From Escherichia coli (lineage in GTDB: Bacteria > Pseudomonadota > Gammaproteobacteria > Enterobacterales > Enterobacteriaceae): a DNA stretch of 64,000 nt. Under the pieces are notes generated by a model that was given only the letters and a program-made list of their open reading frames with translations, made no database searches and was not told the origin of the DNA. Location of the stretch: assembly GCF_001677475.2 (NCBI RefSeq), contig NZ_CP015229.1; one strand, 5' to 3'. Shown here piece by piece: positions 2,376 to 45,950 of the stretch. The translations under genes and the position numbers were made by a program. Within the stretch, counting starts at the first letter, position 1; each line of letters starts with the position of its first letter.

Positions 2376-2476
2376 GGTAAACTCCGGGCAGTTCAGATAT
2401 CCCGTTATTGTTAAAGTCTAATGCCCGGCATAACAAATAATAAAAACCCGCATCTTATTCCATCCCGATATAACGC

Positions 2477-3394
2477 TTAGCTCACCAATTGCCACTGCCT
2501 TTTTTCCATCACTGGAGAACTAATCACTGACATTAACAACTCTTTCACTGCTTGCGCCTGTGGTGATAAGTTCGCTCTGGCGGGTAAATTTAATGACAAA
2601 GAGAGACTCATGGAAGGTGTGGTAATGCGTGACATCCACCCGTTTACTGCGCCACATAACGAACGCGCGGCCGATTCGGGTAATACTGCAACGCCCATGC
2701 CGCTGGCAATCGCTGCGGTAAGCGTGGCAATAGACTCAATTTCACCAATGACTTTTGCCGTGAGCCGCCGTAGGGAAAAAGCCTCATCAACACGAAGTCT
2801 AATAGCACTGTAATCACTGGGGAGAAAGAGGTTCATTTGCGCAATAGCATTAACATCAACGCTTTGCCCCGGGCAATCTTGAGTTCCTACCAGGAAAAGA
2901 TCTTCTTTCAGCAAAGCCTGACTGGATACACCAGCCACAGGGGAATGCTCATAAATCACCGCCATATCGAGTTGATGATTTATCAGTTTTTCGTTAAGTA
3001 CTGCACCGCTATTTTCATGAAGATAGATAACGATCTCCGGGAATTCAGCGCGAACCGCCTGTAATAAGGGCATGGTGATGGATGACGCTGCGGTTCCTGG
3101 CGCAAAGCCAATCGAGACTTGCCCCGATAATGCCTGACCAACGTTATGCACCGCCAGTTGGGCCTGCTCACACTGACGTAAAATGGCCCGCGCATGGGTA
3201 TAGAGAATTTTTCCGGCGTCTGTTGGCGTAACGCCCCGTTTTGTGCGAATCAAAAGTTGTTGATTTAACTCACCTTCCAGTGTGGCAACCTGCTGACTGA
3301 GCGCTGGTTGTGCGATATGCAATACTTCAGCAGCCTGGGTCAGGCTACCAATATCTACAATTTTTACGAAGTATTTCAGGCGTCTGAAGTTCAT
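2477..3394 (-). CDS. nac: Nitrogen assimilation control protein Nac (LysR family)
   Basis: MNFRRLKYFVKIVDIGSLTQAAEVLHIAQPALSQQVATLEGELNQQLLIRTKRG...; tracker ORF starts 10 codons earlier, true start taken at MNFRR. Confidence 0.9.
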   Translation of the reverse strand: MNFRRLKYFVKIVDIGSLTQAAEVLHIAQPALSQQVATLEGELNQQLLIRTKRGVTPTDAGKILYTHARAILRQCEQAQLAVHNVGQALSGQVSIGFAPGTAASSITMPLLQAVRAEFPEIVIYLHENSGAVLNEKLINHQLDMAVIYEHSPVAGVSSQALLKEDLFLVGTQDCPGQSVDVNAIAQMNLFLPSDYSAIRLRVDEAFSLRRLTAKVIGEIESIATLTAAIASGMGVAVLPESAARSLCGAVNGWMSRITTPSMSLSLSLNLPARANLSPQAQAVKELLMSVISSPVMEKRQWQLVS

Positions 3395-26908: not shown

Positions 26909-27105
26909 GCAGAAACTCCGTAATGAAAATTAAAAGCGCTCATAACACATCTGTCGGCCAGAAGGCGCGCCTCTGAGTTATCCGACGGACATACCGGGAA
27001 CAGTGTAATTTCCCGGCAGGAGCGAAAAAATTGAAAGGCGCATCTTACTCTTTTCGCTTTCAAAAAAAGAGTGGTCATCGCGTTAACACACCGCCCTAAG
27101 ATGAA

Positions 27106-27579
27106 TTAGTGATGTTTTGGCTGCACCGCAACATACATTTCGATATCCCAGTACCCATCTTCCGCGCCATTGTTCAAATAAACCTCAAAACAGGGCTTTG
27201 GTAACATTTCATAAGCACTGTCTTGCAAGAGGCTATTAAAGAACTGATACCAGGGTTTAGCAAAATCATCACCGACTACACGAGCTACCGCCACCGCATA
27301 CTGACCACCTGAAATTTCTGTCAGAATGACGCCCTCACTGTTTTCGGGGAGCGTGAAGTAACCCGGCACCGTCACGACGGTGTCGCAGCGTAATTTTTCG
27401 GCGGGTGTTTCGTCTGGATTGTCGTAATAGACAGCAACCCACTCCTTCGGCACAATATTTTGGCTATCTACCCACATCATCAACTGCTCAAAACCTTTCT
27501 TTACCGTCTGCTCCCACGGGCCAACGAGATGGAAACCTGCAACGGTACGTTTATCTTCCTGCTTAATCTCGTAGTTCAT
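27106..27579 (-). CDS. sbmC: DNA gyrase inhibitor SbmC (GyrI)
   Basis: 157 aa [37 protein letters not shown]... Confidence 0.93.
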
Positions 27580-27595
27580 GAAGCCTCCATTAATA

Positions 27596-27611
27596 CTGTT
27601 TTTATATACAG
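27596..27611. promoter_or_regulatory. LexA (SOS) box upstream of sbmC
   Basis: CTGTTTTTATATACAG = CTGT-N8-ACAG, 17 bp upstream of the sbmC start. Confidence 0.85.
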
Positions 27612-27723
27612 TATAGTTGCAATATTAAAACCACAAGGAATGAGTGTTGATTATGCGAGCAGACTCGCACTCCTGCCAGTCTGCTGCAAAAGAAAGGTCA
27701 GGCCTTATGGTGGAAATAATCAC

Positions 27724-28869
27724 TCAGGCGAGAAAACATGCTGCCTCCCCGACAGATTCCAGGGTAACCAGCGGCCAGTGCGCCACCTGTTTATCACGGT
27801 CGTAAAGTTCAATTTCCCCTACCCGCTGATGGGCGCTAATTGGCGCGGTGAGCTCTTTACCATCAAGGGTATATTTGGCTTTGATATGTGGAATTTCAGC
27901 TTTCGGTAGCACCATCCAGAACTCTTGTTCCGTTCCCAAGGCGATATTTTCTTTATCGCCATACCAGATGCGTTCCGTACCGACCTTTTTCCCACGGTGC
28001 AAAATTTGCACCGTAGTAAAGTTTTGTTGCCCCCAACGCAGTAATTTTCTTGCCTCTTCCTCACGACCTTTTGCACTGTCAGCCCCCATTACCACTGCAA
28101 TGAGACGACGCTGCCCATCTACAGCCGAAGCAATGAGGTTAAACCCGGCACCAGAAGTATGACCCGTTTTCAGGCCGTCAACATTCATGGTTTTATCCCA
28201 CAATAACCCGTTACGGTTTTGCTGGGTGATACCGTTCCAGGTGAGGCTTTTCTCACTGTACATATGATAAAACTCGGGCTCGCCGTGGATGATAGCGCGA
28301 GAAAGCACAGCTAAATCATAAGCCGAGCTATGCTGGCCTGGTGCATCCAGACCATGCACTGTTTCAAAATGTGTATCCTTGAGATGCAGCTTCTCGGCAT
28401 AGTTGTTCATCATTGCAACAAACTGCCGTTGCCCGCCGGCAATATAGTCAGCCAGTGCAACACAAGCGTCATTTCCGGAATCCACAATTAAACCACGGCT
28501 TAAATCACGTACCGATACGCGATCGCCCTCTTTCAAAAACATCAGTGAAGAACCGACAAACACTGGATTATCTTTCGCCCACGCATCGCGCCCTACGGTG
28601 ACAATATCGTCTGGCGTAATGCGATGACTATCGATAGCGCGATCCACGACATAACCCGTCATCAGCTTTGTCAGGCTGGCGGGATTGCGCTGTTGATGCT
28701 CATTACCCGCGGTGAGGATCTGTCCGGTGGTGTAATCCATCAGTACCCAGGACCCGGCTTGAATCTGTGGAGGCTGAGGTGAAAAAGGAATGTTTTCCGC
28801 CGCAAAACCAGACGATAAGTTAAAAACGAACAAAGAAGCAGCAATAATAAGACGGCGTTTCAACAGCAA
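27724..28869 (-). CDS. dacD: D-alanyl-D-alanine carboxypeptidase DacD (PBP6b)
   Basis: 381 aa with signal peptide and SxxK motif (ASLTKLMT). Confidence 0.92.
   Translation of the reverse strand: MLLKRRLIIAASLFVFNLSSGFAAENIPFSPQPPQIQAGSWVLMDYTTGQILTAGNEHQQRNPASLTKLMTGYVVDRAIDSHRITPDDIVTVGRDAWAKDNPVFVGSSLMFLKEGDRVSVRDLSRGLIVDSGNDACVALADYIAGGQRQFVAMMNNYAEKLHLKDTHFETVHGLDAPGQHSSAYDLAVLSRAIIHGEPEFYHMYSEKSLTWNGITQQNRNGLLWDKTMNVDGLKTGHTSGAGFNLIASAVDGQRRLIAVVMGADSAKGREEEARKLLRWGQQNFTTVQILHRGKKVGTERIWYGDKENIALGTEQEFWMVLPKAEIPHIKAKYTLDGKELTAPISAHQRVGEIELYDRDKQVAHWPLVTLESVGEAACFLA

Positions 28870-44774: not shown

Positions 44775-45950
<1,176 letters not shown>

Follow-up and report, generated by a model that had tools for sequence, protein, structure and literature searches.

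Since 1995, sbmC (gyrI, b2009 in E. coli K-12) has been counted among the genes induced by the SOS response and in stationary phase. It is reportedly among the published LexA ChIP targets and, to our knowledge, its LexA box is present in every list of the SOS regulon.

In K-12, AZT induces sbmC 5.7-fold, a response that depends 9.5-fold on cleavage of LexA, and a heterology index (HI) of 2.8 has been published for its box (PMC11228462). The box is listed as TATACTGTATATAAAAACAGTATCA in Table 4 of PMC3009722, where the sbmC and umuDC sites stand side by side, and sbmC is the best-scoring MEME instance of the SOS box in that study. Both modes of induction, SOS and stationary-phase, are reviewed in PMC10886550. 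The UV-induced activity of the K-12 promoter is biphasic with a second, late peak, for which an alternative sigma factor is suspected (Culyba et al., PMC5999292), and LexA is therefore not the sole control of sbmC. In Salmonella enterica, the box occupies the orthologous position with the sequence CACTGTATATAAATACAGTG or TACTGTATATAAGTACAGTA, has a published HI of 6.32, and nalidixic acid raises expression of the gene 3.55-fold (PMC8072944).

A second layer of control has been described by Cameron & Redfield, who showed that the sbmC promoter belongs to the CRP-S type, being Sxy- and CRP-dependent, as do those of ppdD and yrfD (PMC1635313). Sxy induces sbmC 6-fold, with an absolute dependence on CRP and cAMP, and the same study, citing Zheng et al., assigns a class I mechanism to this promoter (PMC1635313).

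Here, we analyzed the corresponding locus within a 64-kb stretch of E. coli DNA (hereafter the window). The locus shares with K-12 an identical 20-bp LexA box located 14 nt from the ATG, the CRP-S site and the neighbouring genes yeeA and dacD, and differs from it by three intergenic single-base substitutions, all of which are outside the box. The umuDC operator, which ranks among the strongest of the predicted ones, consists of exactly the same 20-mer, albeit at a different gene and in a different promoter, with 19 nt between the end of the box and the umuD ATG; we know of no CRP-S site at umuDC. Compared to Salmonella, in which 16 nt lie between the 20-mer and the ATG and representatives score 22-23 bits with the matrix described below, the box is placed 2 nt closer to the gene. 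The TGCGA-N6-TCGCA motif of the window is the published sbmC CRP-S site, but the likeness to ppdD and yrfD concerns this activator site and not the LexA box; of the three promoters, that of sbmC is the one analyzed here, and it carries a LexA operator at its putative -10 element and start point.

Identification of the sbmC LexA operator

On the plus strand, the 20-bp palindrome upstream of sbmC reads TA-CTGT-TTTTATAT-ACAG-TA, with CTGT at 27596-27599, the spacer TTTTATAT at 27600-27607 and ACAG at 27608-27611 (features are collected in Table 1). The CTGT-N8-ACAG core noticed in the first-pass annotation was borne out by direct reading of the window, in which this pattern has a single match. 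The 20-mer is separated from the sbmC ATG by 14 nt and the core by 16 nt (27580-27595); the distance of 17 bp given by the first-pass annotation is the offset from the C of CTGT to the A of the ATG (27579), and is correct as such, given the 16 intervening bases. The site had also been called perfect, a description that holds for the CTGT/ACAG core and for the flanking TA..TA but not for the spacer, in which two positions differ from the idealised palindrome: the 20-mer has two mismatches to TACTG(TA)5CAGTA, both of them A/T swaps within the AT-only spacer.

Table 1. Features of the sbmC promoter region in the window, and the loci with a Klebsiella-type promoter
Feature	Position	Strand	Evidence and remarks
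Predicted LexA operator (SOS box), 20-mer TACTGTATATAAAAACAGTA	27594..27613	-	sequence; matrix 25.8 bits; HI 1.06
Core CTGT-N8-ACAG	27596..27611	.	exact match; part of the 20-mer
Putative Shine-Dalgarno GGAGG	27584..27588	-	4 nt upstream of ATG; among the most conserved alignment columns
Candidate -10 TATACT	27610..27615	-	3'-terminal 4 nt shared with the 5' end of the LexA 20-mer
Weak candidate -35 TTGTGG	27631..27636	-	3/6 match; 15-nt spacer
CRP-S site TGCGAGTCTGCTCGCA	27654..27669	-	40 nt upstream of the LexA 20-mer; most conserved intergenic block
sbmC (gyrI) coding sequence, 157 aa	27106..27579	-	ORF; A of ATG at 27579
Klebsiella-type loci (L042, L045, L050, L058-L066, L069, L071-L074)	~2400..2500		upstream of sbmC

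Taken on its own, the core pattern has no statistical weight, as the bare eight bases are expected 0.74 times per window and were found at least once in 56 of 100 shuffles, which is no more than chance. The full 20-mer, on the other hand, is far beyond chance, and sequences with three or fewer mismatches to TACTG(TA)5CAGTA were encountered in 0 of 100 shuffles.

To score the site, we made use of 19 published K-12 operators, each of which was confirmed upstream of the named gene in NC_000913.3 (recA, lexA (two sites), sulA, umuDC, uvrB, recN (three sites), uvrA/ssb, uvrD, dinB, polB, dinI, ruvAB, yebG, dinG, ftsK and dinD). In text searches of a literature collection, no paper matched the sbmC/umuDC 20-mer written as a separate word, and four other operator sequences retrieved single-site papers only and no operator table. 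A log-odds LexA matrix was built from the 18 K-12 sites that remain without umuDC and sbmC, a base of 18-19 sites on which all the following scores depend. With this 18-site matrix, the sbmC site reached 25.8 bits of a maximum of 27.98 and an HI of 1.06, and was the top-scoring site of the window. In leave-one-out scoring, the verified K-12 operators ranged from 9.6 to 25.8 bits; the sbmC site equalled or exceeded every one of them, tying only with the identical umuDC 20-mer. The best score in 500 windows simulated with a first-order Markov model was 13.4 bits on average and 21.6 bits at maximum. The second-best site of the window, with 12.6 bits, trails the sbmC site by 13 bits, and the LexA-like sites at 45285, 54218 and 54846 (12.3-12.6 bits) were rejected as lying within the range of chance, given the mean simulated maximum of 13.4 bits.

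Taken together, the 20-bp palindrome is, judged from its sequence, almost certainly the LexA operator of the sbmC (gyrI) promoter, to which tight binding of LexA is predicted because the operator is near consensus and shares its sequence with that of umuDC. It is base for base the 20-mer of the K-12 sbmC promoter, and its proposed use as an internal positive control is legitimate. The operator is an already known and ordinary one, and nothing about it is biologically new. The main value of the result is one of quality control, in that the reading of regulatory sites from the letters recovered a textbook SOS operator; other LexA calls made in the same way merit some trust, provided that the full 20-mer is scored and not the core alone.

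Conservation of the operator across enterobacteria

Scanning species-representative genomes with the SbmC protein yielded 80 loci from more than 20 named genera, including Escherichia, Salmonella, Citrobacter, Enterobacter, Lelliottia, Kluyvera, Leclercia, Klebsiella, Raoultella, Atlantibacter and Pseudocitrobacter. At 77 of these 80 loci, the best match to the LexA matrix within 200 nt upstream scored 13-26 bits and was located 14-24 nt from the sbmC ATG, while the best match in the rest of the ~5 kb flank was typically 5-11 bits. The box is conserved in position in 77/80 species, while its flanks diverge. The two half-sites are retained to different degrees: the downstream ACAG is kept in 72/77, whereas the upstream half reads CTGT in 41, GTGT in 22 (Enterobacter, Lelliottia, Leclercia) and ATGT in 11 (Klebsiella, Raoultella) of the 77.

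The exceptions are of different kinds. In Klebsiella michiganensis DSM 25444, the box is intact and is directly followed by a 1.9-kb group II intron (L077, 550..2480), which lies in sense orientation in the expected 5' UTR and is supported by an Rfam match (RF02005, 180.6 bits) together with a 494-aa reverse-transcriptase ORF. In Escherichia sp. MOD1-EC7003 (L081, 2480..2500), a deletion of ~17 nt has removed most of the box (ACATACTG/ATTGGAGG) and SbmC is matched only up to residue 82, such that operator and gene appear to be decaying together. In Intestinirhabdus, the intergenic region is remodelled and a 15.5-bit box is found 166 nt upstream.

The same matrix also retrieved a 21.4-bit LexA box (CACTGTTTAAAAATACAGTA) in an Enterobacter MAG (L040, 232..533), located beside dacD and just upstream of an ORF of the DinI family (Pfam PF06183), which provides an independent positive control for the matrix.

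Promoter organization and alternative readings of the site

Read along the gene strand, the promoter region is arranged as TGCGAGTCTGCTCGCA-N17-TTGTGG-N15-TATACTGTATATAAAAACAGTA-N6-GGAGG-N4-ATG. A TAnnnT motif is present at the position of the candidate -10 in 53/54 type-A orthologs, which have the same layout, and the TTG of the candidate -35 is kept in the ortholog alignment. A weak -35 is expected of an activator-dependent promoter. From the -10, we infer a start point at ~27603, that is ~7 nt downstream and inside the operator. For the UV-induced transcript of K-12, the 100-nt upstream segment given in PMC3009722 implies a 5' edge equivalent to ~27605 in the window, at the ~7-nt resolution of the tiling array.

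The CRP-S site had been missed by the first-pass annotation. It is identical to that of K-12 and has the TGCGA/TCGCA cores as well as the C at position 6 and the G at position 17 of the 22-bp CRP-type dyad. A TGCGA-type CRP site was found in 54/77 orthologous promoters. The spacing between the CRP 16-mer and the LexA 20-mer is 40-43 nt; a direct calculation from these spacings places the centre of the CRP site at about -58.5 relative to the predicted start in the window and at up to -61.5 in 30 species, the latter being the canonical class I position. Two other readings of this region were rejected: a hairpin or terminator formed by the TGCGAG/CTCGCA palindrome, which has no T-run and whose complementarity is lost in Citrobacter, and a sigma-54 promoter at TGGCAG...TGC, in which the GG-GC spacing is, by inspection, 9 and not 12.

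The consensus promoter scan did not call the proximal TTGTGG/TATACT promoter, and instead called CTGGCA-18-CATAAT (27679..27650, 9/12 match) within the most conserved intergenic alignment block. If transcription started from this upstream pair, the box would lie at ~+30 to +50 and LexA, although bound to a real operator, would act as a downstream roadblock. However, the conservation of the block is accounted for by the published CRP-S site, which fills the 'spacer' of the pair (PMC1635313), and we demote CTGGCA-18-CATAAT as a real promoter because the CRP-S site explains its conservation. Furthermore, its '-35' is not conserved in the Klebsiella-type lineages, the edge of the UV-induced K-12 transcript falls inside the LexA box (PMC3009722), and the class I geometry of the CRP site (-58.5 to -61.5) suits the conserved proximal -10. 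A roadblock downstream of this pair is thus improbable, though it is the best surviving of the alternatives considered.

The overlap between the operator and the -10 leaves room for a further reading, in which the palindrome would be conserved mainly as a -10 element, start point and 5' UTR, or for another regulator, with the resemblance to a LexA site being incidental. The half of the box that overlaps the -10 is indeed the one that degenerates in some clades, to GTGT and ATGT in the 22 and 11 species given above. Yet conservation within the box is highest in the promoter-distal ACAG half, which plays no part in the promoter, and it is for this reason that conservation for the promoter only is disfavoured; the dyad symmetry and the 8-nt AT spacer are also retained, and most of the K-12 induction is abolished by lexA3 (PMC11228462). 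Altogether, we consider this reading very unlikely.

Finally, a chance AT-rich palindrome devoid of LexA function, to which the AT-rich surroundings and the frequency with which the bare core is expected might point, has next to no probability and is excluded by a score above the maximum of all 500 simulated windows, by identity to the operators of K-12 sbmC and of umuDC, both of which have been studied by experiment, by the same position in 77/80 species with diverging flanks, and by LexA-dependent induction in K-12 (PMC11228462).

A model for LexA-dependent repression of sbmC

The most likely mode of action of the operator is the occlusion by LexA of the -10 element and start point of a weak, CRP/Sxy-activated promoter. 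The present analysis provides the site with its score, its K-12 identity and conservation, and its placement relative to conserved promoter elements, while LexA-dependent induction and CRP/Sxy dependence come from the K-12 literature; the exact start point and the occlusion itself are what we infer from them. Speaking against the model are the weak candidate -35 with its 15-nt spacer, the failure of the consensus scan to call this promoter and, should the start be at 27603, a CRP centre at -58.5 in place of the canonical -61.5. In the undamaged cell, a LexA dimer would be bound to the 20-mer, which begins inside the candidate -10 (27615..27610 in gene direction) and would span the predicted start at ~27603. 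Formation of the open complex by RNA polymerase would be blocked because LexA would cover both the -10 and the +1. Upon DNA damage, activated RecA would promote self-cleavage of LexA and the operator would be vacated, allowing transcription from a promoter that otherwise would need cAMP-CRP with Sxy at the CRP-S site (27669..27654). The output of sbmC would accordingly require relief from LexA and would be boosted by CRP/Sxy and by stationary-phase signals.

Lineage-specific layouts of the sbmC promoter

The layout with a TGCGA-type CRP-S site 40-43 nt upstream of the LexA box, in class I geometry (-58.5 to -61.5), is shared by Escherichia, Salmonella, Citrobacter, Enterobacter and Kluyvera. 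A different arrangement was observed in a group consisting of Klebsiella, Raoultella, Pluralibacter and Pseudocitrobacter (Klebsiella-type loci in Table 1), in which 15/16 species have a CRP-like TGTGA-N6-GCACA site. This site is only 27-29 nt from the LexA box, compared to 40-43 nt in the Escherichia type, and its canonical TGTGA half-site adopts a class II-like geometry, near -41.5. Within the same group, the box is found 20-24 nt from the ATG and its promoter-side half is degenerate (ATGT) in 11/16.

These observations suggest that the dual control has been rewired to a class II-like layout in the Klebsiella-type group. We tentatively raise the possibility, to which we would give somewhat less than an even chance, that the LexA operator acted as a fixed anchor around which the sbmC promoter was rewired during enterobacterial evolution. 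If true, the combined SOS and cAMP logic would be conserved, and the Sxy (competence) input would be lineage-specific.

The sbmC gene and its neighbourhood

The gene downstream of the operator had been named as SOS-induced sbmC from the letters, and this assignment proved correct. The encoded protein is identical to K-12 SbmC at 154/157 residues (98%; the differences are E9D, K40Q and T90S), matches the Pfam GyrI-like family (1.2e-32) and the SbmC crystal structure (PDB 1JYH, 3.8e-108), and by fold and sequence is an SbmC/GyrI gyrase inhibitor orthologous to K-12 b2009. The gene order yeeA-sbmC-dacD-sbcB is that of K-12, the region is annotated as sbmC flanked by dacD in E. coli genomes, and induction of the K-12 gene is published, as indicated above.

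At the 3' end of dacD (27724..27760, minus strand), one A of the K-12 run GGGGAAGGC is missing, between 27746 and 27745. As a result of the frameshift, DacD ends in ...ESVGEAACFLA (379 aa) compared to ...ESVGEGSMFSRLSDYFHHKA (388 aa), and its C-terminal tail is altered. Among 5,416 complete E. coli genomes, there is no 100% match to positions 27585..27790, the best being 99.5%, which amounts to one difference; because of this, the deletion appears either to be confined to this genome or to reflect a sequencing error.

The window has a G+C content of 47.2%, which we judge to be low for E. coli. The coding part of sbmC is unusually divergent, in that the closest complete E. coli genome is 98.5% identical over 27000..27800. 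One of the three amino acid differences, Ser in place of Thr at residue 90 (27310..27312), is located inside the octapeptide ITGGQYAV (residues 89-96), which reportedly suffices to inhibit gyrase (PMC6722960).
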